IMG/VR virus record: IMGVR_UViG_3300023171_000012
Length of the DNA: 20,000 nt
Origin: an uncultured virus (IMG/VR IMGVR_UViG_3300023171_000012)
Lineage: Duplodnaviria > Heunggongvirae > Uroviricota > Caudoviricetes
Direction: 5' to 3' (one strand)
Shown piece by piece: positions 1,029-11,470 of this stretch (position 1 is the stretch's first letter; each line of letters starts with the position of its first letter). The notes beneath the pieces were generated by a model. It had not been told where the DNA came from, ran no database searches, and was given only the letters and a program-made list of their open reading frames with translations. The translations under genes and the position numbers were made by a program.

Positions 1029-4000
1029 ATGAGCAGAGGAAGACCACCTAAGATTACCCCCGCACCTGCGCTGAACTATTACGGTTTGGAGCGGTTGGGG
1101 TATGCCAGTGCAATCCCCCTGACAGGTGACTATTTTGCAGATCAGCTCACTATTGAGTTTATCTGCTTTCGTATTTCACATCGTCGGAGTGAAGGCGGTC
1201 TGGATAGGTTTGGGCACATGAAGAAGGGCATCGACCTTCTTTACAATAACCCGGATCGGCCCTCCATGAAGTCGCTGGTCTGGAACCCTTGGGCCGAGCG
1301 CATGATGAGGAAAGCCTGTGAGTGCTCAGAGCTTTCGGTCGCTGGCCCGACCTCCGCTGGAAAATGCTGGTCCCCTGAAACGCCCATTCTCCGATTTGAT
1401 GGCACAATATGCCGGGCTGATGAAGTTCGGCCGGGGGATCTTCTCATGGGCGATGACAGTCAGCCGCGAACCGTCCAAGAAGTGCATTCGGGAACCGGCC
1501 CGATGTATCAGGTCACACCAATTCAAGGCGAACCATGGAGATGTACACCCGAGCATGTTCTCGTCTTGAAGAGAGCCTTCGCTCCTAAAAAATGCTGGAG
1601 ACGCGTGGGGGAGATTACAGAAGTATCGGCAGAGGATTATTTCAATGCCAGCATTCAATTCAAACGACAACATAAGCAGTTCTGTGTTGGCGTGGAATTT
1701 CCTGAACAACCAGTCCCCTTCGATCCCCGTTTGCTTGGGATATGGCTCGGCGACGGACACTATCATGGCTGCCGCATTTCCATACCCGACATCGAGCCTG
1801 ACGTTCTAGCATACGTCCGTGAATGGGCAGGTCCCGCAGGGTATCAGGTTGTGGTTCCAAAAGATTGGAACCCCGGCTGCCCGAGCTACCCAATCTATCC
1901 AGTAAAACAGATAGAAGGTTTTGGGAGAGGCCGTAACCCGTTGGCTCAGTTTTTCAAAAGCAATATACGGGATGGAGAGAAACGCATCCGTCCCGAGTAT
2001 CTCATCAATTCCCGGAAAGTCCGGCTGGAGCTTCTTGCCGGGTTGCTTGACACGGATGGGCATGCTGCCGGGACATACTTTGAAATAGCCACAAAGTATG
2101 GAGGGTTGAAAGATGATATTCTTTTCTTGGCACGATCTCTCGGATTTCGTGTGACGGCGACACACCGCTTGGCAACATGCCAGGGGAAAAAATTCCCATC
2201 TTGGAGAATCAATATCATGGGGGAGCTGTCGGAGATTCCTACTCTTCGGAAGAAGTGCCGAGACAAAACTCTCCGGGTGAATTCAGACCAGACAGGAATC
2301 ACGGTCTCCAAGGTGGAAGATGGCCCTTGGGTCGGCTTCTCCGTGGACGGGAATCACCGGCTCCTGCTTGGAGACTTCACTGTGAGTCACAATTCAGACC
2401 CTTACGCCGCGTATGCCCTGTTCAGCTATATTGCGGACCCGACACACACCAAAGTCCTCATCATGTCCACCACGTTGGACGGTGCGAAGCTGCGGATCTG
2501 GAAAACTTTCCGAGAATATGTGTCCGCGCTGCCCAATCTTCCGGGAAAACCTCAATGGAGCACCAACCGGATTCAGGGGCCAAATTACGCAGGAGATGGC
2601 TACGGCGATTCCTCCGGGGTTATGCTTCTGGCATCTGAAAAGTCTCGGGAGAGGGATGCCTTGGAAAAGATGCTGGGGATCAAGGCCCCCATGACAGGTC
2701 GGCCGGACAAGACTTTCGAGGCTCTGAAAGCTCGACCGGAGTTTGCCGATCTCGCAGAACAGTTCGATGATGAGTATCTTGAAGACCTGCTCCCCCGCTT
2801 GGCCAATCTCACAGATGACCGCGCCGGGAAGTTGATCTTAATCGTCGATGAAGCAACAGGACTCTCTGAATCCCTACTCCAAGCGATCAACCTGAACATG
2901 AAGCCCGGCAACGCCGGAAACCTTCAGGTCATTATGATTGCCAACCCGCATCTACATTGGGACGCCCACGGAATTTTCAGTGAACCAAAAGTCGGGTGGG
3001 AGAATATCACTATCGACGATGAGGAGTGGGAGACAAAAACCGGAGGAACTTGCATCCGATTCAACGGTGAAAAGAACCCGCGTCTCACAGAGAAGAACGA
3101 GCGATATGTCTGGATGCTTTCCCAGCAACGGATCGAAGATATTGCCCGCGACTCCGGCGGAAAAGGCAGTATCGGGTACTGGCGAATGGTTTTAGGGGCC
3201 TGGCTACCACAAGGTTCTGATTCGGGCATTTACAGCCAAGCAGACATCGAGCAGGCGGGAGCGATGAAGAAGGCGGTTTGGGGGTTCAGGCCACCAATCA
3301 TAATTTCCGCGCTGGATACCGCCTACACCAGCGGCGGGGACAAATCGAGCTGTTCATTCTTCAATTTTGGGCTTGATACCGAAGGCATCCAGACCTTGGA
3401 GCTTATCGAGCAAATCGCCATCAAGACGGACATCAATGACCTGAGCCGCCCGATTAGCTACCAGATGGTCCATAACTGGCGGAAAGAGTGCAAGGCTCGC
3501 GGTGTGCTGCCGGAGCATGCTTGCTTCGATTCCACTGGTGGCGGGATCTCATTCGCGGACATCGTGAAAACCCAATGGTCTTCTCAAGTGCTCGGAATCA
3601 GCGCAGGCGGCAAAGCCCCGAAGGTTGCCGTCGGCAGTGAAAAAGACCGCGATGGCAAGCCTGTGCTGGCCTCTGACCGCTTCTTCAACAGAGCCACCCA
3701 GTTGTGGCTTGGAGCGATGCCGTTCCTGCGCTCCGGCCAGATAAAAGGTATCCCCATGGCACTCGCCAAGGAAATCATCTCCAGGCAGTATGACAAGACC
3801 GGAGCTGCCGACGGACGGACGCTGAAGATCGAAGGAAAAAGAATTTTCAAGTCGCGGGAGAAGCACTCTCCCGATGATTCAGACAGCTTCTTCCTCGGCA
3901 TCGAGTTGGCGAAGGTCCGTCTCGGATTCAAACCTTCGGAACAAGCGGCAGCACCTGAAATGGTGACAGGCCGAAGTGGTGTCGGAACGTGGAAAGCGTT

Positions 4001-4046
4001 TTGCAACAAAGCCCGGCGCATCACGACGAAAAGAGGTCTCCAATGA
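1029..4046 (+). CDS. terL: Terminase large subunit, intein-containing
   Basis: Walker A GPTSAGK|S split by an intein, Walker B LILIVDEA, C-terminal RNase H-like nuclease acidic motifs (ALDTAYTSGGD, FDSTGGG, SPDDSDS); lies upstream of the portal-like gene. Confidence 0.9.
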   Translation: MSRGRPPKITPAPALNYYGLERLGYASAIPLTGDYFADQLTIEFICFRISHRRSEGGLDRFGHMKKGIDLLYNNPDRPSMKSLVWNPWAERMMRKACECSELSVAGPTSAGKCWSPETPILRFDGTICRADEVRPGDLLMGDDSQPRTVQEVHSGTGPMYQVTPIQGEPWRCTPEHVLVLKRAFAPKKCWRRVGEITEVSAEDYFNASIQFKRQHKQFCVGVEFPEQPVPFDPRLLGIWLGDGHYHGCRISIPDIEPDVLAYVREWAGPAGYQVVVPKDWNPGCPSYPIYPVKQIEGFGRGRNPLAQFFKSNIRDGEKRIRPEYLINSRKVRLELLAGLLDTDGHAAGTYFEIATKYGGLKDDILFLARSLGFRVTATHRLATCQGKKFPSWRINIMGELSEIPTLRKKCRDKTLRVNSDQTGITVSKVEDGPWVGFSVDGNHRLLLGDFTVSHNSDPYAAYALFSYIADPTHTKVLIMSTTLDGAKLRIWKTFREYVSALPNLPGKPQWSTNRIQGPNYAGDGYGDSSGVMLLASEKSRERDALEKMLGIKAPMTGRPDKTFEALKARPEFADLAEQFDDEYLEDLLPRLANLTDDRAGKLILIVDEATGLSESLLQAINLNMKPGNAGNLQVIMIANPHLHWDAHGIFSEPKVGWENITIDDEEWETKTGGTCIRFNGEKNPRLTEKNERYVWMLSQQRIEDIARDSGGKGSIGYWRMVLGAWLPQGSDSGIYSQADIEQAGAMKKAVWGFRPPIIISALDTAYTSGGDKSSCSFFNFGLDTEGIQTLELIEQIAIKTDINDLSRPISYQMVHNWRKECKARGVLPEHACFDSTGGGISFADIVKTQWSSQVLGISAGGKAPKVAVGSEKDRDGKPVLASDRFFNRATQLWLGAMPFLRSGQIKGIPMALAKEIISRQYDKTGAADGRTLKIEGKRIFKSREKHSPDDSDSFFLGIELAKVRLGFKPSEQAAAPEMVTGRSGVGTWKAFCNKARRITTKRGLQ
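1365..2393 (+). mobile_element. Intein (343 aa) with LAGLIDADG homing endonuclease
   Basis: Starts CWSPETPI, block B CTPEHVL, LAGLIDADG-like motifs LLGIWLGDG and LLAGLLDTDG, ends VSHN followed by Ser+1. Confidence 0.93.
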
Positions 4047-4356: not shown

Positions 4357-4968
4357 ATGGTAATCTGCATCCCTTTCCATCCGAACCTCACGGACTACCG
4401 CCAACTCGCCGCCGAACTGAAAAAGCGCGGCAACCTGAGCAACCACGTCCTGCTGGTGATCTCGGAAGCGGAGCATGAGGATGAAGCGTACCAGTTCGGC
4501 ACCGAAGTTGCGGATCTGTTCCTCAAATCCCTCTCGAAGACCCTGCCTGCCGTCGAACGTCGGAAAGCGCAGCTCGCCAATGACCTGTTCATCACCGCAG
4601 CCCGGTTCGTCTATCGTTACAAGGCCCAAGATGACGAAATCCCAGATCCCGCGCTGTTGTATTTCGATCCGACCTTCCGGCCGACGAAATCAGGCTGGCT
4701 CGATGCCATCCAGTCCGAGTATTACCTGATGCAGGCTCCGCAGATTTTCGGAGCTGCCACGGTGGACACCGAAGGTGCCAAGATCTTCAACGGTCCATTG
4801 GTGATTTCGAAGGAATTCGCCCCGAATTCGGGTCTTCTTGACTTTATCCCGGAAAATGTGCATTGGAGAACCCATCTGCGCTGGGAATTGACCAAGAATT
4901 CCCGTGAGACCCGTCTCATCGGACCAGGTGCCGAGTCAGTCCTCAAGCTGCCACCCGTCAAAAAATGA
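4357..4968 (+). CDS. Hypothetical protein, possibly a degenerate GT-A (glycosyltransferase-like) fold
   Basis: 203-aa ORF; N-terminal hydrophobic strand VICIPF, then LLVIS and LLYFDP...GWLDAIQSEY, a pattern reminiscent of GT-A folds; function is inferred. Confidence 0.6.
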   Translation: MVICIPFHPNLTDYRQLAAELKKRGNLSNHVLLVISEAEHEDEAYQFGTEVADLFLKSLSKTLPAVERRKAQLANDLFITAARFVYRYKAQDDEIPDPALLYFDPTFRPTKSGWLDAIQSEYYLMQAPQIFGAATVDTEGAKIFNGPLVISKEFAPNSGLLDFIPENVHWRTHLRWELTKNSRETRLIGPGAESVLKLPPVKK

Positions 4969-7244
4969 CCGACTCTGAAGAAACCACCTTCGCTCCATCC
5001 GTGAGCGACATGCCACTGCTCTCGATGTCCGAAACCGGAGCGGTGCCGAAAAGCCGTCTCTGTAAAGCCTCGGCCCAGCGGTCGATTTTCAAACGGATGT
5101 ATGAGGATGACCGCACCAATGCCTTCAACCGGGCGCAGATCCAGGATCTCCTCGACGGCGGCACTCCCTACTCCCAAGCGGAGCTGAACGAGGCCAACCA
5201 GCCGGACACCACCAATCTCAATTTCGGCGGAGCCGAGGAGCAGCTTGAGAAGGCCATGGCTCCTTACTACGACCTCGTGCAGTCGCCGGAGGACATTGTG
5301 TCCGTCTGCACCCTCCACGGGGCTGAAGAGAACCGCGCCGACTGGAATGCAGGTCTTTCCGAGGAAATCTCGCGCACCATCCGCGACGCCGAGCAGTTCA
5401 CTTTCCAGACCTCCCGTCTTGCCCAGAAGCACGTCTGGGATGGTGTCGGCGTCGGCTATTGGCCGGATGAACTCGATTGGCGGTACATCGGCTCCGGTCT
5501 CGGGCAGTTCTACTTCCCGCGCCAGTCCTTCGCCTGCGAGTCCGAACTCCCTGTGGTTTGTGCGATCCAGGAGATGACCGTGACCCAGCTCTACAAGAAG
5601 GTCGCCAACCAAGTCGAAGGCGAGGAGACCAAGAGCAAGTGGAACAAGAAAGCTGTCGAAGAAGCCATCAGAAAGGTCACGACGAATTCCCCGGACTACG
5701 CGAACTGGGAATACCTGATGGAGGAGATCAAGAACAACGATCTCGGAGTGGACAGCAGGACGCCGATGATCCGCCTGATCCACACGTGGGTCACGGAGTT
5801 CGACGGCAAGATCAGCCACCACATCACCACCGAGGAAGACCAAGGCACGGAAGTGTTCATCTACTGCTGCCACGGCAAGTATTCCGCGATGCGTCAGGCC
5901 CTCGTCATGTTCCCCTACGGACTGGGAACCAACACCAAGACCCACGGCATCCGGGGTCTCGGCTACAAGATTTATGCCTTCGAGCAGCAGCGCAACCGCT
6001 CGCTCTCCCGGCTCATCGACCAAGGCAATCTGGCTTCCAGTCTGATGATGCAAGCGGCGGACGAGAGTTCGCTCGCCAACATCGGTCTCCAGTATTTTGG
6101 CAACCTCGCCGTCATCCCGCCGAATGTTACCATCGCGGATTACACGCCGCCGGATCTCTCCAAAACGGTCATGCCCGTGCTCGGCGAGATGGAGCGTCTC
6201 CGCAACAACCGCACCGCTGGATACAGCTCCGAGGCCGCGTTCGACGGCGACCAGCGCAAGACCAAGTTCGAGATTTCCTCGCAGCTTCAGCAGAACGCCG
6301 CGCTCTCCGACACCCAGCTCGATTTCTGGAACGTGCCATTCAACCGCCTGCTCCAGGAGACCGTGCGGCGCATGGCCCGTCGCAACTTCGTCCCGATGGA
6401 CCCGGGCGGTCAGGAGATCGCCGAGCTGCGTCTGCGGCTCACCAAGCGGGGCATCCCACTCGAAGCCCTCTTCAAGCTCGACTTCAAGGCCACCAAGCTC
6501 GTCCCTGCCATCGGCGCGGGTAGCGCATCGGCCCGCACGCTCAAACTGGAGAAGATGGAAGTCCTGCGCCCCCGCATGGATGATGTCGGCCGGGCCAACC
6601 TCGACCGCGACCTTGCCACCGACACCGTGGGTGCCGAACGGGCCAACCGTTACTTCCCCAAGGACCAGCAACCCCGCTTCACCTACGACACGTCCATCGC
6701 CATCCTCCAGAATGGTCAGTTGCTCAACGGCATCGAAGTCCCGGTCCTCCCCGGCGACAAGCACCTCGCCCAAGCGCGGGAGCACATCAAGCCGTTGCTC
6801 GAAGGCTTCCAAGCCGAACAGCAGGGACTGGTACCAATCGAAGAATTTGCCGACGGTTCCCGTCTGCTGTTCCTCCACACCGTCGAACACGTCGATATGG
6901 TGGAGAACGACCCGGCATCCGCCGAGGAAGCCGCAGCACTGCGCCAGGCACTCCAGCAGATCGGGGAAGTGGTGTCGAACGGACTCCGCAAGATCCAAGC
7001 CGCAGAGGCCGATGCCCAGGAAGAAGGCGACCCTGCGGCCGCACAAGACATCGCCGAGGTAGAGATGTCCCGCGAGAAGCTCCGCCAGTCGCAAGAAGCC
7101 CACAGTCTAAAGCTCCAGCAGATGCAGGAGACAGCCCAGTTGAAGAACGAACTGACAGTTCAGTCTTCAAGGGTCAAGGACGCGATTGCCGATGCCCGTG
7201 AAGCGGCGAACATCCGCCGCACACCCAAGAAACCAGCAAAATGA
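4965..7244 (+). CDS. Probable portal protein (759 aa)
   Basis: Size, helical character, Q/E/A-rich coiled-coil C-terminus, position between terminase and scaffold/capsid; strong GC3 codon bias. Confidence 0.7.
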   Translation: MTDSEETTFAPSVSDMPLLSMSETGAVPKSRLCKASAQRSIFKRMYEDDRTNAFNRAQIQDLLDGGTPYSQAELNEANQPDTTNLNFGGAEEQLEKAMAPYYDLVQSPEDIVSVCTLHGAEENRADWNAGLSEEISRTIRDAEQFTFQTSRLAQKHVWDGVGVGYWPDELDWRYIGSGLGQFYFPRQSFACESELPVVCAIQEMTVTQLYKKVANQVEGEETKSKWNKKAVEEAIRKVTTNSPDYANWEYLMEEIKNNDLGVDSRTPMIRLIHTWVTEFDGKISHHITTEEDQGTEVFIYCCHGKYSAMRQALVMFPYGLGTNTKTHGIRGLGYKIYAFEQQRNRSLSRLIDQGNLASSLMMQAADESSLANIGLQYFGNLAVIPPNVTIADYTPPDLSKTVMPVLGEMERLRNNRTAGYSSEAAFDGDQRKTKFEISSQLQQNAALSDTQLDFWNVPFNRLLQETVRRMARRNFVPMDPGGQEIAELRLRLTKRGIPLEALFKLDFKATKLVPAIGAGSASARTLKLEKMEVLRPRMDDVGRANLDRDLATDTVGAERANRYFPKDQQPRFTYDTSIAILQNGQLLNGIEVPVLPGDKHLAQAREHIKPLLEGFQAEQQGLVPIEEFADGSRLLFLHTVEHVDMVENDPASAEEAAALRQALQQIGEVVSNGLRKIQAAEADAQEEGDPAAAQDIAEVEMSREKLRQSQEAHSLKLQQMQETAQLKNELTVQSSRVKDAIADAREAANIRRTPKKPAK

Positions 7245-7532: not shown

Positions 7533-8651
7533 ATGCCTGATCCAGACCCCATTGATGAAGCCTTTGCCAACCTCGCCGCGAGTTCACCCGAACCCGTTGC
7601 AGAGGGGCCGAACGCATTCCTTGAAAACTTCGCGGAGCTTCCTTCCGCCGATGAACCCGCAAAACCCGATGACACACCTACGCCGACTGAAACGAAGCCT
7701 GATGCGGACACTGACACCGATGGCTTTCCTGACGAACCGCCGAACAAGTCTTCGGAATCCGCCGGAAATGTCTGGAAAGGTCTGAAGACCGAGCTGAAGA
7801 AGACCAAAGCCGACCTCCGCGCCGAGCGGGATACCAAGGCCCAAGAACTCGCCGCCCGCGACACCGAGCTGAACGAGCTGCGGGAGAAGACTTCCAAGCT
7901 GCCTGATCTGGAGCAGAAAGCCGCCTTCGTCGAAGAAGCCGAACGGAAGATTGCCATTCTCGATGTCAAACAATCCCGTGAATACAAGCAGGCCATCGAA
8001 GCCCCGCTTGACGCCATCGACGCTGCGGCCGAGATCATCGCCAAGGCGAACGAGGTCAAGCTGACCGATCTCCAAGATGCCATCATGGAAGCCGATCCGG
8101 TGAAACGCCGGGAATTGCTCCGCACGGTCGTTGCTGACATGGACGACGTGGACAAGGCCGAAGTCATCCAGATGGCGAAGGACACCCAAATCATCCTTGC
8201 CCGTGAGCGCGAGATGAGTTCCAGAGCCTTCGAGGCTCGCAAGGAGTTGGAAGCCATCACCAAGGAGAATGAGACCAAAGCCCAGGAAGCCGCTCGCAAG
8301 ACCTTCGAGACGGCTACTGAAAATTCGGTCGCAGAACTCCGCAAGCGTGTCCCGTTCGCAGAACTCACCGCCGGGGAGACCGCCGACGGTGTTTTCGGGA
8401 ATGTCCTGACGAAAGCAAAAGCCGTGAATCTCGACACCGCCACTCCGGCGGTCAAGGCATTCGCCGCCGCCGCCGGTATCTTGCTCCCCCGGGTCGTGGC
8501 TCAGTACGTCGCTGCTCAAGCGGAGATCAAGACCCTGAAAGCCCGTATTGCCGGAGAAAATGCCGACCTTCCCCGGGTCAGTGGTGATCCGACACCGACG
8601 CTGAATCAAAGCAAGGAAGTCGATTTTGCGAATTTCACACTTCCCACTTGA
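7533..8651 (+). CDS. Probable capsid scaffolding protein (372 aa)
   Basis: Acidic, Pro-rich disordered N-terminus followed by a long A/E/K coiled coil; upstream of the capsid gene. Confidence 0.65.
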   Translation: MPDPDPIDEAFANLAASSPEPVAEGPNAFLENFAELPSADEPAKPDDTPTPTETKPDADTDTDGFPDEPPNKSSESAGNVWKGLKTELKKTKADLRAERDTKAQELAARDTELNELREKTSKLPDLEQKAAFVEEAERKIAILDVKQSREYKQAIEAPLDAIDAAAEIIAKANEVKLTDLQDAIMEADPVKRRELLRTVVADMDDVDKAEVIQMAKDTQIILAREREMSSRAFEARKELEAITKENETKAQEAARKTFETATENSVAELRKRVPFAELTAGETADGVFGNVLTKAKAVNLDTATPAVKAFAAAAGILLPRVVAQYVAAQAEIKTLKARIAGENADLPRVSGDPTPTLNQSKEVDFANFTLPT

Positions 8652-8679
8652 CGGCACTGCAAGGATGTAGTGTTGTCGG

Positions 8680-8806
8680 GGTGTCAGCAGAGGACACCAC
8701 TTCGCTGCGCTGTTCGTTAAAGGCAGTCACCGGAAAAACAGATTCGTCTGCCGGGACCGAGCTGCGAACAGCGGCACAATTTTTAGAACATAGCGGGTAT
8801 CCCCGC
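8680..8806 (+). ncRNA. Structured leader/small RNA upstream of tmRNA (unassigned)
   Basis: Hairpin GGTGTC/GACACC; long imperfect hairpin GCTGTTCG...CGAACAGC with inner CCGG/CCGG and CAGA-TTCG-TCTG; hairpin GCGGG/CCCGC. Confidence 0.4.
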
Positions 8807-8811
8807 AACCA

Positions 8812-9171
8812 GGGACGCTTCCGGTTTCGACTGAACCGGGTATCCTATTGATAGCATGCAGAGGTTGATCGGTGGGCCTCTTAAAAAGCCGATCAAGAAT
8901 CCAAATGGCAATAACGTCATCAGCTTCAGCCGCAACGTCGCAAAGTCTTCGGACCTCGCGCTTGTAGCCTAAGCGAAAAACGGTCCCCGCAATGATCCGA
9001 TAAGCGGGAGACTCCAAACCGGATCAACAAACGGAACCCAGAGCCGTAAAGACTGGGTGGTGGATGGCGAGGAGGTTTTTACCAAAAGACCGAATCCCCC
9101 AAATATAAGCATGTTTGAAGTCAATAGGTAATCGGTTCAGGACAGGGGTTCGACTCCCCTGCGTTCCACCA
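8812..9171 (+). ncRNA. ssrA: tmRNA (one-piece, 360 nt)
   Basis: Acceptor stem GGGACGC/GCGTTCC with G3:U70 alanine determinant and encoded ACCA end; T-arm AGGGG-TTCGACT-CCCCT; P2 helices CTGAACCG/CGGTTCAG, CCTATTGA/TCAATAGG, GCATG; PK1 GAGG/CCTC plus TTGATCGGT/GCCGATCAA; tag reading frame follows. Confidence 0.95.
8907..8972 (+). other. tmRNA tag reading frame: (A)GNNVISFSRNVAKSSDLALVA*
   Basis: Resume codon GGC shortly after PK1, 21 codons, TAA stop; hydrophobic Ala-ending C-terminus. Confidence 0.8.
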
Positions 9172-9196
9172 CTTTCAGCCGAAAGGCATCAATATC

Positions 9197-9267
9197 GTGT
9201 GAAATCCCGGTTCGACTCCGGGCTTCTCCTCTGAAGAGGAGAGGTAGTTTAACGGCAGAGCGCACAC
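9197..9267 (+). ncRNA. Circularly permuted tRNA-like cloverleaf (YrlA/Y-RNA-like or permuted tRNA)
   Basis: Order on the genome: GTGTG (anticodon stem 3' strand), AAAT, CCCGG-TTCGACT-CCGGG (T arm), CTTCTCC, linker TCTGAAGA, GGAGAGG (acceptor 5' strand), TA, GTTT-AACGGCA-GAGC (D arm), G, CACAC (anticodon stem 5' strand). Confidence 0.8.
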
Positions 9268-9299
9268 CCTCAATTTCCCTGTAACAAGGGGACTCATAA

Positions 9300-9672
9300 A
9301 CACCAGAGGACCAATCACAAGCCCACCGTGTGACCGAAGGTGCCCGTCGTTTGTCGGGAATTTCTAGCCCAGTCGAGTGTCTGACTGGAAAACGGGGGAA
9401 GGCACACCACATTTCAGTTCACTGTCATTGAGGGGAATCAGAAAATCAGCGGCCAGCCAACGCCAGTCGAAAGGAACCCGGAGCGATCCGGTAATACTGA
9501 ACTCTGATTTAGCGACCTGAGCAGTGAATTGAAATGTGGTAACAGAAGGCTGTCTCTCACGAGTTGCCACATACGAGAGATAGTGCGGCCGAGCGAGTAA
9601 TCGCGATAGCCACCTGCATCCAGAAGATGCGCGGGAGAGCTGAACCAAGCCCGTAAAATCCTACACTCAGTT
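9300..9672 (+). ncRNA. Large structured ncRNA of unknown class (~370 nt; boundaries approximate)
   Basis: No credible ORF; 19-bp helix 9406-9424/9522-9540; nested helices GAATCAGA/TCTGATTT and CCGGA-GCGA-TCCGG; GTGCC/GGCAC enclosing CCAGTC/GACTGG; CTGTCTCTC/GAGAGATAG; GCGA-GTAA-TCGC; GCATC/GATGC. Confidence 0.65.
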
Positions 9673-9674
9673 AT

Positions 9675-9706
9675 CCCGATGTCGGAATTCCGACATCGGG
9701 GTTTTT
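9675..9706 (+). terminator. Rho-independent terminator closing the RNA cluster
   Basis: Perfect 26-nt palindrome CCCGATGTCGGAATTCCGACATCGGG followed by GTTTTT. Confidence 0.8.
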
Positions 9707-9746
9707 GCTTGATACCCGCCTGGATACCCGCTATTCAGGAAGGACT

Positions 9747-9869
9747 ATGAAACTGATCCTCCTCGCGCTTTGTCTCTGTGTCGTTTCCTGCGGAACTTCG
9801 ATCACCCTCACCCCAGATGGTGTGGTGATTACTCCGCCAACTGCTCCAATCGTCATTCCTACAAAATAG
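9747..9869 (+). CDS. Small lipoprotein (40 aa; MKLILLALCLCVVSCGTSITLTPDGVVITPPTAPIVIPTK)
   Basis: AGGAAGGA upstream of ATG; basic N-terminus, hydrophobic core and lipobox VVS|C; below the ORF-track length cutoff. Confidence 0.75.
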   Translation: MKLILLALCLCVVSCGTSITLTPDGVVITPPTAPIVIPTK

Positions 9870-10040
9870 ATGTCCATCGGAACCAGACAACAGCCTGAAA
9901 AATGGCTGGATTTTAAATTCCGCCACAAGACGAGATCGCGGAAGTGGGAAAAGCAGAAGAAGAACCGAAAACTCCGGCATCTGGCTTCGGTGAACCCTGA
10001 AGTAGGACCGCAGCCTAAGTATTGTGGCTGGGAGTGGTAA
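9870..10040 (+). CDS. Small highly basic protein (56 aa; MSIGTRQQPEKWLDFKFRHKTRSRKWEKQKKNRKLRHLASVNPEVGPQPKYCGWEW)
   Basis: ATG immediately follows the lipoprotein TAG; ends just before the capsid promoter; K/R-rich. Confidence 0.6.
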   Translation: MSIGTRQQPEKWLDFKFRHKTRSRKWEKQKKNRKLRHLASVNPEVGPQPKYCGWEW

Positions 10041-10048
10041 ATTTCATG

Positions 10049-10078
10049 TTGACATTCCAACAGTTTTTCAATAAACCT
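10049..10078 (+). promoter_or_regulatory. Putative sigma70-like promoter for the capsid gene
   Basis: TTGACA at 10049-10054, 17-nt spacer, TAAACC(T) as -10-like box; intergenic. Confidence 0.5.
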
Positions 10079-10255
10079 CCTCGCGAAGCAATTCTCAGCT
10101 TTTTCAAAAAGAGGATCTCTCAATACTACTGAGTGTTTAATCCGGCTGCAAGGCTGGCCGTTACCGGGCACGGGTCACGAACTGAAGCTTACCAGCATTC
10201 TGCTGCGTAAGGAACCAATTCCACCCCTTCTACCGGCCCATGGCCAACCCCTTTT

Positions 10256-11470
10256 ATGCCCGCACCCGACCTGAATGATTTGCTCGCGAGAAATGAGATT
10301 GCCCTTGCTGGGCAAATCTACAAATCCTCAATTAACGATTCCATCTGGAATGCTTTGGTCCGTAAGTCCCCTTGGCCTAACGGCATGGCGGACACGCTCC
10401 AAGTGCTCACCGTTGAGCGCAATCTTCCCGCCAACATCGACACATGGACTCCGTTGACCCCCAACGAAGACTCCAACACCTGTGTTCCTATCGCCGATGT
10501 CGTGCCTCGTGGCAACACCACTCGCAGCTATTCGCTGGAGCAAAAAGCCATCGAATCGGAAGACATCTGCGTCAACGACACGCGTAACGCCTTCAGTGTA
10601 AGCGACCAGATCCGGCACATGTTCGAAGGTCTCCGCGACGTGATTTCCTACACTTGGAAGCGCAAGGCCCAGCTCGACTACACCCGTATCTCCGAGCACA
10701 AGATCGTTGCCACCAACGGACTTCCCGAGTCTTCGAGCCACATGCCGACCCTCGCGGCCACTTCGCTGCTCACCCAGAAGATCCTCAACAAGATCTACGT
10801 CCAACTCATCGCGAACTCCGCGCAGCGTGACGGCGGTTCCCTCGGCATGCAGGACGGTCGCCCTCAGTTCATCCTCGTGACGGACATGGAGACCTCCGAC
10901 GACATCCTCCGTGAGGATTCGACCAACGCCGCTTTCCTCTACAACGGCAAGCGCGTTCCCGAACTCCTCGCCCCCCTTGGTGTGGATCGTGCCTTCCGTG
11001 GTTTCTACCACACCATCGACAACCTGCCACGTCGCTTCAACTTCACGGCTGGTGCTTGGGTGGAAGTTCTCCCTTACGTCACGACCGCCGCGACCAAGGG
11101 CGTCAAGGCTGCTCTCAACCCTGACTACCTGTCCGCGCCGTTCACCGACTCCTACGTGTTCCTCCCAACGGTTTTCGAATTCGTCGTTCCAAACTCCATT
11201 GGTTCGGTTGGCTCCGGCACCCAGTTTGCTGCTCAGGAATACATCGGCAAGATGAAGTGGCTCAACATCGCCGACCGCGAGGTCAACCCCGACAACAGCT
11301 ACGGCTTCTATCGTGCGGTCCTCCAGTCCGGTTCGAAGCCCATCAAACCACAGTTCGGTTTCGTCATCCGTCACCTCCGCTGCCCATCCGACATCGGTCT
11401 CCAGGCTTGCCCTGCGGGAACCTCGGGTGACTCCGCAGATCTGGATTCCGGCGAATCCTTCTTCGTCTGA
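10256..11470 (+). CDS. Probable major capsid protein (404 aa)
   Basis: Size, very strong codon bias (suggesting high expression), own promoter and terminator, position after the scaffold. Confidence 0.75.
   Translation: MPAPDLNDLLARNEIALAGQIYKSSINDSIWNALVRKSPWPNGMADTLQVLTVERNLPANIDTWTPLTPNEDSNTCVPIADVVPRGNTTRSYSLEQKAIESEDICVNDTRNAFSVSDQIRHMFEGLRDVISYTWKRKAQLDYTRISEHKIVATNGLPESSSHMPTLAATSLLTQKILNKIYVQLIANSAQRDGGSLGMQDGRPQFILVTDMETSDDILREDSTNAAFLYNGKRVPELLAPLGVDRAFRGFYHTIDNLPRRFNFTAGAWVEVLPYVTTAATKGVKAALNPDYLSAPFTDSYVFLPTVFEFVVPNSIGSVGSGTQFAAQEYIGKMKWLNIADREVNPDNSYGFYRAVLQSGSKPIKPQFGFVIRHLRCPSDIGLQACPAGTSGDSADLDSGESFFV

Follow-up and report, generated by a model that had tools for sequence, protein, structure and literature searches.

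Transfer-messenger RNA (tmRNA) genes were reported from 402 of 18,146 phage genomes (2.3%), and in the OM43 phage Melnitz a glutamine riboswitch is attached to the 3′ part of ssrA (PMC9004378, from an excerpt of the article). YrlA-like RNAs were described in 22 phages, where they were sought next to Ro60, and the motif GNCGAAN0-1G near the YrlA 5′ end is regarded as a putative Ro60 contact (Chen et al. 2014, PMC4201824, likewise from an excerpt). In M. smegmatis, the acceptor stem of YrlA measures 7 bp, and this RNA is a substrate of RNase P to which CCA is added (same excerpt of PMC4201824). Both kinds of RNA are present in mycobacteriophage Bxz1, whose tmRNA scores 73.9 bits and whose YrlA-like RNA, 30 kb apart from it and just upstream of the Ro60 gene, scores 32.5 bits, under the Rfam cut-off. 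Here we analyze a 20,000-nt stretch (the window) of the uncultured Caudoviricetes contig IMGVR_UViG_3300023171_000012, a phage contig of 72,094 bp of which the remaining 52 kb lie outside the view. All features are on the plus strand unless stated otherwise. Between the scaffold and major capsid genes the window holds a one-piece tmRNA (8812-9171), a YrlA-type tRNA mimic (9197-9267) and a trailing RNA of about 400 nt (9268-9672). We read 8652-9702, with a probability of roughly 0.45, as an RNA-only accessory cassette at the 3′ end of the portal-scaffold unit, acting on host translation or RNA quality control.

Like the tmRNAs of Melnitz and Bxz1, the one in the window is encoded by a complete ssrA of a phage of lytic type, and no SmpB is seen alongside it. 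It differs from them in being a one-piece tmRNA in a phage of about 72 kb, instead of a 141-156-kb myovirus, and in occupying a cargo slot of the head-gene block. Whereas the Melnitz tmRNA bears a riboswitch at its 3′ part, the window tmRNA is followed by a tRNA mimic and an RNA without Rfam family. The YrlA-like RNA of Bxz1 has the same architecture as the window mimic, but in Bxz1 the two RNAs are 30 kb apart and accompanied by Ro60, while the window pair is separated by 25 nt and no Ro60 is found in the window. With YrlA in general, the mimic shares the order of closing stem, short variable loop, T arm, capped acceptor, UA and D arm, and its 9-bp acceptor stem recalls the 7-bp stem of M. 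smegmatis YrlA. It departs from YrlA in its score (16.3 versus 69 bits), in the absence of rsr from the window, in the lack of a terminal stem and in a 3′ side that extends by about 400 nt. The first-pass annotation of this DNA, made from the letters alone, was aware of no description of the combination of RNAs. This has to be narrowed, given the known phage tmRNAs in the consulted excerpt of PMC9004378 and the pair of RNAs in Bxz1; what stands is the adjacency without Ro60. A literature search, judged at the level of its result entries, returned no paper on a tmRNA directly before a Y-type mimic or on a phage YrlA without Ro60. New are thus the adjacency of tmRNA and mimic before a single strong terminator with no Ro60 in view, the partly recurring RNA of no known family, and the placement of all of these in an anti-defence slot.

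The tmRNA was recognized at 8812-9171 by ARAGORN and Rfam in agreement, with an encoded CCA end, and the first-pass claim of a tmRNA in the island is thereby borne out. The match to RF00023 reaches 112.5 bits (gathering score 47, E 1e-43) and is untruncated, covering model positions 1-374 of 374. As read from the sequence, the acceptor stem pairs GGGACGC with GCGUUCC and is followed by ACCA, it includes the G3-U70 alanine identity pair, and the T loop is GGUUCGACUCC. Two tag frames were proposed. The Rfam alignment places the resume codon GGC at 8907, from which the frame 8907-8972 encodes GNNVISFSRNVAKSSDLALVA and then a stop, while ARAGORN reports 8932-8967 (ATSQSLRTSRL). We favor the former because of its hydrophobic LALVA C-terminus, and GNNVISFSRNVAKSSDLALVA is most likely the tag; it may resemble the tags of cyanobacterial tmRNAs. 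No SmpB domain was found among the ORFs (open reading frames) of the window, and the host is assumed to supply this protein.

The scaffold stop and the tmRNA are separated by 160 nt (8652-8811), with predicted hairpins at 8652-8675, 8709-8772 and 8793-8806. Their pair probabilities are 0.7-0.99, and the 150-nt stretch 8660-8809 folds with a z-score of -3.97. On the basis of this predicted folding, 8652-8811 is probably the 5′ leader of a tmRNA precursor. A promoter scan found no sigma-70-like promoter in it. The long imperfect hairpin at 8709-8772 is followed by a short T run and forms a weaker terminator-like site upstream of the tmRNA; it could be a leaky terminator or part of the precursor leader.

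Twenty-five nt past the CCA of the tmRNA, positions 9197-9267 can adopt a permuted tRNA fold. It consists of a 5-bp closing stem (9197-9201 with 9263-9267), a 4-nt variable loop (9202-9205), a T arm with the loop UUCGACU (9206-9222), a capped acceptor hairpin of 9 bp with the loop UGAA (9223-9244), a UA linker (9245-9246) and a D arm (9247-9261). All pairs of the four helices (23/23) are standard or G-U. The cloverleaf-type fold is predicted at -26.8 kcal/mol, against a minimum free energy of -27.8 kcal/mol for the module, and it carries a penalty of 5.2 kcal/mol in a 501-nt context. In the established numbering of tRNA positions, those that form the elbow are kept, as read from the sequence: U8, A14, A15 with U48, G18 G19, A21, G53-C61 and the T-loop UUCGA. 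ARAGORN called no tRNA at 9197-9267. The only Rfam match there was a local one to YrlA (RF02553) at 9205-9261, on model positions 30-81, with 16.3 bits and E 1.5 over 4227 families. The order of elements found in YrlA, namely T arm, acceptor stem-loop, D arm and closing stem, is also that of the mimic. A permuted tRNA-like RNA had been claimed here in the first-pass annotation; the fold is upheld, with the correction that it follows a known design, that of YrlA. We regard the mimic, judged from its sequence and predicted fold, as sharing the YrlA-type design, yet we do not class it as a member of that family because its score is under the threshold and no Ro60 gene is found in the window.

The mimic also resembles the two-piece permuted tmRNA, which likewise presents a T arm, the acceptor 3′ strand, a short linker, the acceptor 5′ strand and a long downstream RNA. 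A two-piece tmRNA from 9197 onward was considered and rejected, since the 3-70 pair is A-U, no CCA is encoded and ARAGORN finds no such gene. No tag-like ORF stands out by eye among the short frames of the trailer, and a match of 16.2 bits to the Rfam tmRNA_permuted model at 9139-9217 lies mostly on the T arm of the first tmRNA. A 21-mer of the mimic matched two IMG/VR records (L047 and L048), both rejected as relatives; they hold odd tRNA-like genes of ordinary order with insertions, in unrelated contexts. These genes (L047 1500-1610 and L048 1500-1650, both on the minus strand) are uncalled by ARAGORN and share their T arm and acceptor 3′ strand with the mimic, the first with a long extra arm and the second with an insertion of about 100 nt.

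The YrlA topology raises the question of a bona fide Y RNA system, in which Ro60 would be encoded in the other 52 kb of the phage or by the host as Rsr, and 9172-9672 would be one or more Y RNAs tethering Ro60 to an exonuclease, like the Rsr/Y RNA/PNPase machine. This would agree with the octamer GCCGAAAG at 9178-9185, 7 nt past the tmRNA CCA, which fits GNCGAAN0-1G near the 5′ end and could form a GAAA-capped mini-hairpin; a second match to the motif is present at 9466 within a long hairpin, and Bxz1 combines tmRNA, YrlA and Ro60 in one phage. However, no TROVE protein is encoded by the ORFs of the window or by two complete relatives, and nearly all YrlA genes lie within 4 kb of rsr on the same strand, according to the excerpted text of PMC4201824. 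A stable terminal stem between the 5′ and 3′ ends, as in a Y-RNA-like closure, is not predicted either; forcing 9174-9179 to pair with 9640-9645 costs 12.6 kcal/mol. A bona fide Y RNA system seems to us improbable.

The mimic is followed by a trailing RNA of about 400 nt (9268-9672) that belongs to no Rfam family and shows no protein signal. No Rfam match was obtained for 9268-9672 at E<=10, and the wider stretch 9172-9720 gave at the same threshold the weak YrlA match and two matches on the terminator hairpin. The trailer invites comparison with GOLLD and ROOL, large phage-associated RNAs near tRNA genes that are presumably both represented in Rfam 15, as it is likewise a structured RNA of several hundred nt without assigned function beside tRNA-like genes; however, 9172-9720 matched no such family at E<=10. 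The folding z-score is -5.24 for 9172-9705, and for 9268-9560 it is -2.79 on the plus strand versus -1.44 on the minus strand. The most prominent predicted structure is a long hairpin domain at 9406-9540 (inverted repeat I2), in which a 19-bp stem with one G-U pair (9406-9424 with 9522-9540; pair probability at least 0.90) encloses a 97-nt interior with at least three inner helices. Further short hairpins are predicted in the trailer. Neither the tmRNA nor any other part of the window showed significant complementarity to the trailer.

That the trailer codes for small unrecognized proteins, on either strand, is hardly credible. Minus-strand frames of up to 98 aa from stop to stop are available for such genes, but none of the 14 stop-to-stop frames of at least 30 aa matches Pfam or PHROGs at E<=0.1, and a search of 5.8 billion proteins gave no homologue of a 94-aa minus-strand ORF. 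In addition, the neighboring genes are all on the plus strand, where the longest trailer frame has 50 aa, and a variant from another metagenome study carries a 1-nt gap within 9374-9543.

Parts of the trailer are observed outside the window, and this recurrence is the strongest sign of its importance. Three sets of sequencing data were used: X1, the probable source sample, which is not independent, and X2 and X3, which are runs of two other metagenome studies. A contig of X3 spans 9281-9431 with 2 differences in 151 positions. Contigs of X2 cover 9288-9417 with 1 difference in 130 and 9374-9543 with 10 differences and the 1-nt gap in 170, so that pieces within 9281-9558 recur at 94-99% identity in these two studies. 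For comparison, capsid-gene pieces from X2 range from 3 differences in 340 positions to 24 in 157. The X2 contigs part from the window after about 9543-9558, and other X2 contigs match the variable pseudoknot part of the window tmRNA. One X2 contig of low depth joins 9417 to 9529; the interior of the long hairpin may thus be optional, as this single contig skips 111 nt (9418-9528). In exact-pattern scans of IMG/VR, a trailer 20-mer, both arms of the long hairpin and the tmRNA 3′ end gave 0 matches. The first-pass notion of a large RNA of unknown kind agrees with the predicted folding, the absence of protein signal and the partial recurrence in two studies, but it is not confirmed as a defined RNA and has no Rfam family at E<=10.

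A 2,083-nt contig of X1 (record 3) carries another tmRNA gene. It matches 8852-8896 with 2 differences and 9105-9177 with 7 differences and 2 gaps, has 222 nt versus 208 nt between the matching ends, and continues into another downstream flank, with a loose end at 9177. This gene may be the host ssrA or that of another phage.

These contigs bear on the main rival of the cassette reading, which is passive capture. According to it, a cellular ssrA and its flank were acquired by illegitimate recombination, the mimic is what remains of two neighboring tRNA copies, the sequence after it is a trailer without function, and the tmRNA may be in use or not. The 2,083-nt contig with its second tmRNA shows that close cellular or viral relatives exist, and capture of ssrA by phages is discussed in the excerpted part of PMC9004378. 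The island itself was seen once only among 46 related loci. In addition, the 5-mer UCAAU borders the closing stem on the outside at each end (9191-9195 and 9270-9274), which would be compatible with rearrangement of two copies of a single anticodon loop. The anatomy of the mimic is harder to reconcile with capture, since its boundary coincides exactly with the 5-bp closing stem and a loop of 4 nt caps its acceptor, features that a random pair of deletions need not yield, while all 23 of its pairs and the positions that form the elbow are intact. Moreover, two other studies contain parts of the trailer at 94-99% identity, one source being a relative with capsid-gene pieces that are 9-15% different, and the X1 tmRNA contig diverges from the window 6 nt past the CCA, which indicates that the trailer is not the flank of that tmRNA gene. 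We consider passive capture possible but unlikely.

The insertion is observed by comparison with 46 related loci (35 from metagenomes, 10 from IMG/VR and 1 from a metagenome-assembled genome), in which the capsid proteins are 31-67% identical to that of the window. They were gathered through an alignment-based search, single capsid or scaffold protein queries in IMG/VR having given no close relatives, and they include the near-identical pairs L015/L016, L020/L021, L014/L032, L006/L037 and L026/L046. The order portal, p95, scaffold, capsid and p74 is kept across them. From the scaffold end at 8651 to the capsid start at 10256, the window has a gap of 1604 nt. The 31 loci with both genes have gaps of 237-373 nt in 25 cases and of 571-724 nt in the other 6, and no tRNA or tmRNA was detected in any of the 46. 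Both the gap of some 1.6 kb between normally adjacent head genes and the insertion of the island at this point, as first proposed, are therefore confirmed. No tmRNA, YrlA or TROVE protein was found in two complete relatives (68,417 and 71,093 bp) or in one record that is 53% complete, and no match to the island was obtained by blastn among 50,697 phage records.

In the relatives, the baseline plan runs from the scaffold stop to a strong hairpin and T run within about 15-40 nt, then a promoter, a leader of about 200 nt and the capsid ATG; the strong hairpin and T run right after the scaffold stop are present in about 20 of the 31. The window retains both ends of this plan. At 9673-9702 it has an intrinsic terminator of 13 pairs (8 G-C) with a loop of 4 nt, followed by TTTTTG, and at 10046-10255 a capsid promoter (TTGACA-17-TAAACC) and a leader of about 200 nt that align with those of the relatives (alignments A2 and A3). 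The terminator is 94% identical over 31 nt to L019 1916-1946, 91% over 32 nt to L039 4757-4788 and 82% over 33 nt to L024. Since it is homologous to the post-scaffold terminators of relatives, it is, on this sequence comparison, the ancestral terminator of the scaffold unit and not the island's own. With both ends of the plan kept, the island consists of two separate insertions: the RNAs at 8652-9672 before the ancestral terminator, and two micro-ORFs at about 9703-10045 between the terminator and the capsid promoter.

This arrangement also refines how the island is expected to be transcribed. No terminator-like site of more than 6 pairs was found on the plus strand between 8652 and 9672. Given the shared orientation of the RNAs and the lack of a strong terminator among them, a single precursor with its end at 9702 is the simplest reading, which accords with the single precursor of the earlier annotation at the level of prediction. 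Its single strong terminator exists as the 13-pair hairpin, but in view of its close counterparts in L019 and L039 it was not brought in by the island. Directly past the scaffold terminator, the relatives possess a conserved sigma-70-like promoter of the form TTGAC-N16/17-TAAnnn. Since a conserved promoter and leader serve the capsid gene itself, the island is part of the portal-scaffold unit and not of the capsid transcript; expression together with head genes, as formerly suggested, would hold for the former unit and fail for the latter.

The site of insertion is used for other cargo in sister phages. Six relatives have an enlarged gap. In five of them the extra DNA amounts to a single co-oriented ORF, placed after the scaffold stop and ahead of the terminator, and in four of the six the slot contains Tad2-like or Acb2/Tad1-like genes. 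These are a Tad2-like gene in L039 (4348-4725; PF11195, 69.4 bits, E 4e-19), an Acb2_Tad1_hairpin gene in L014 (4396-4683; PF24729, 28.1 bits, cut-off 27), which is matched by the slot of L032, and a gene of the PF24729 family in L019 (1595-1888; 25.1 bits, just under the cut-off of 27). The ORF of L012 (3964-4179) matches phrog_6978, whose function is unassigned, and L031 has no clear ORF. On these comparisons the slot between scaffold stop and terminator is a cargo hot spot within the head module. The island has the same position and orientation as the anti-defence genes, but its cargo is RNA while that of the relatives is protein.

A further rival reading is a selfish mobile cassette, in which the block 8790-9734 moves between phages and the RNAs serve the element and not the phage, for example as guide or recognition RNA. 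A perfect 13-nt inverted repeat (pair I3; 8790-8802 and 9722-9734, 100% complementary, 919 nt between the arms) brackets the block from the tmRNA to the terminator. Its right arm lies within a region of tandem 12-nt repeats (family D4) at 9708-9737, CTTGATACCCGC / CTGGATACCCGC. From its placement, the inverted repeat could be a regulator site or mark cassette ends. Two further observations fit mobility, namely that the terminator is 90-94% common to L019 and L039 despite capsids only 55-59% identical, as if cargo and terminator traveled together, and that the X2 contigs diverge after about 9543-9558. On the other hand, no transposase, integrase or nuclease gene is present in or beside the block, no target-site duplication could be read from the sequence, chance alone would by our estimate produce about three 13-nt inverted pairs in 20 kb, and four exact-pattern scans found no copy in IMG/VR. 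We hold a mobile element of this kind to be highly improbable.

Under the favored reading of an RNA-only accessory cassette, transcription would enter the island from the scaffold gene or from an unrecognized promoter and stop at the ancestral terminator (9673-9702), giving one precursor. RNase P and 3′ trimming would then free the complete one-piece tmRNA with its G3-U70 pair, encoded CCA and a tag ending in LALVA. With AlaRS, SmpB and EF-Tu of the host, this tmRNA would rescue stalled ribosomes and tag nascent chains for proteolysis. The anatomy of the locus, the insertion, its setting in the slot and the partial recurrence of the trailer in other samples are observed; the co-transcription and processing, all partners of the RNAs and the benefit to the phage are inferred. 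The trailer would begin 1 nt past the CCA and comprise the YrlA-type mimic and the further RNA of about 400 nt. The mimic would offer a tRNA elbow and acceptor without an anticodon, and would most likely be bound by host proteins that recognize tRNA or act in RNA quality control, such as Ro60/Rsr if present, RNase P or modification enzymes. The capped acceptor may be a site of RNase P cleavage, like that of the YrlA of M. smegmatis, which is plausible because the 9-bp acceptor stem resembles the 7-bp stem of that RNA. Given that this slot carries nucleotide-sponge anti-defence genes in some sister phages, the cassette probably serves host takeover or counter-defence and would sustain translation while RNA is cut.

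Several points weigh against this reading. Within the window, no Ro60/TROVE gene is found among the long ORFs, nor is SmpB; the mimic stays below the YrlA gathering threshold; and the match of GCCGAAAG to the Ro60-contact motif is weak evidence, because GNCGAAN0-1G occurs 27 times on the plus strand. The mimic could also be a leftover of two adjacent tRNA copies, in which case its intact pairs would reflect youth and not selection, and no X2 or X3 contig covers 9197-9267. As for the trailer, the 19-bp hairpin and the terminator account for the overall folding z-score, 150-nt windows within 9200-9649 being unremarkable (z from +1.7 to -1.4), and the near-identical pieces in X2 and X3 may come from close strains of the same phage. 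None of the sequencing runs found to contain island sequence is an RNA run. The anti-defence reading rests on the neighborhood only, and two of the six enlarged slots (L012 and L031) are without a recognized anti-defence gene. The idea of the first-pass annotation that the module acts in ribosome rescue, RNA quality control or counter-defence fits the anti-defence genes in the slot of sister phages, an argument from position.

A more far-reaching version can be formulated, in which the island is an RNA-only counter-defence module made of a tmRNA, a Ro60-independent Y-type mimic and a new class of structured RNA of about 265-400 nt, all released from one precursor and swapped into the slot where some sister phages have protein sponges directed at Thoeris and CBASS. 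It would soak up tRNA-recognizing effectors and clear stalled ribosomes, and so neutralize or outlast host systems that cut tRNA or mRNA. In this full form the proposal is distinctly unlikely.

The cassette bears on why phages carry tmRNA and on the role of the tRNA-like domain of Y RNAs. Being compact (1 kb) and deletable, with natural comparators that are empty or hold protein cargo, it offers a handle on ribosome rescue and tRNA mimicry versus RNA-cutting defences. Its trailer may represent a new structured RNA, and three independent metagenome studies contain pieces of it from within 9281-9558.

The leader of the capsid gene is a candidate for a new cis-regulatory leader RNA. In the window, it opens with a predicted H-type pseudoknot at 10085-10116, with stem 1 at 10085-10089/10098-10102 and stem 2 at 10091-10096/10111-10116. 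A script found a pseudoknot at the same offset in 13 of 24 sequences, and its stem 2 covaries (CCGA/TCGG, GCCGA/TTGGC, CTCGC/GCGGG, CCTGA/TCAGG, TCCGGC/GCCGGA and ATTCTC/GAGGAT). RNAalifold returned no structure for the leader alignment. Counterparts of the promoter and leader are present in L003, L006, L007, L008, L018, L019, L020, L025, L033, L035, L038 and L039, with more conserved blocks downstream.

The two micro-ORFs reported by the first-pass annotation are both there, and both are orphans. Micro-ORF 1 (9747-9869, 40 aa) has a signal peptide, a lipobox-like VVSC and a tail rich in Pro and Thr, which make its product a candidate small lipoprotein. Its matches are weak (phrog_12984 'lipoprotein', E 0.049; an Rz-like spanin, E 0.58), and nothing was found in Pfam, the 50,697 phage records or the fetched related loci. 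The ATG of micro-ORF 2 (9870-10040, 56 aa, 15 Lys and Arg residues, pI 10.55) abuts the stop of micro-ORF 1. This peptide has no homologue and no family match; by feature similarity it resembles, at 0.92-0.93, nameless clusters of small proteins, two of them mostly viral, which serves as a lead only. No X2 or X3 contig covers the micro-ORF region 9672-10005. A promoter-like TTGATA-17-TATTCA, read from the sequence and absent from the output of the promoter scan, overlaps the 12-nt repeat upstream of the micro-ORFs.

The genes around the island are those of a head module. The gene at 7533-8651 (372 aa) is the last of the portal-p95-scaffold unit and is called scaffold from its position only; homologues 26-53% identical occur at the same place in 31 related loci, and its protein matched neither Pfam nor PHROG. 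The name portal for 4965-7244 likewise comes from position only. The product of 10256-11470 (404 aa, 182 homologues) is the major capsid protein with an HK97 fold. In a Foldseek search with its AlphaFold 2 model (pLDDT 75), the top matches were the HK97-fold capsids of cyanopodophage Pan3 and N4 (E 4-5e-9, probability 1.00). A second, divergent capsid-like gene, 31% identical to the window capsid over residues 6-375, lies between p95 and scaffold in L014 (2227-3147) and L032 (2268-3188). Upstream in the window, the large terminase (1029-4046, 1005 aa; PHROG E 1e-11) contains an intein with a homing-endonuclease domain, seen as Hom_end_hint at residues 113-185 and Hom_end at residues 327-395.

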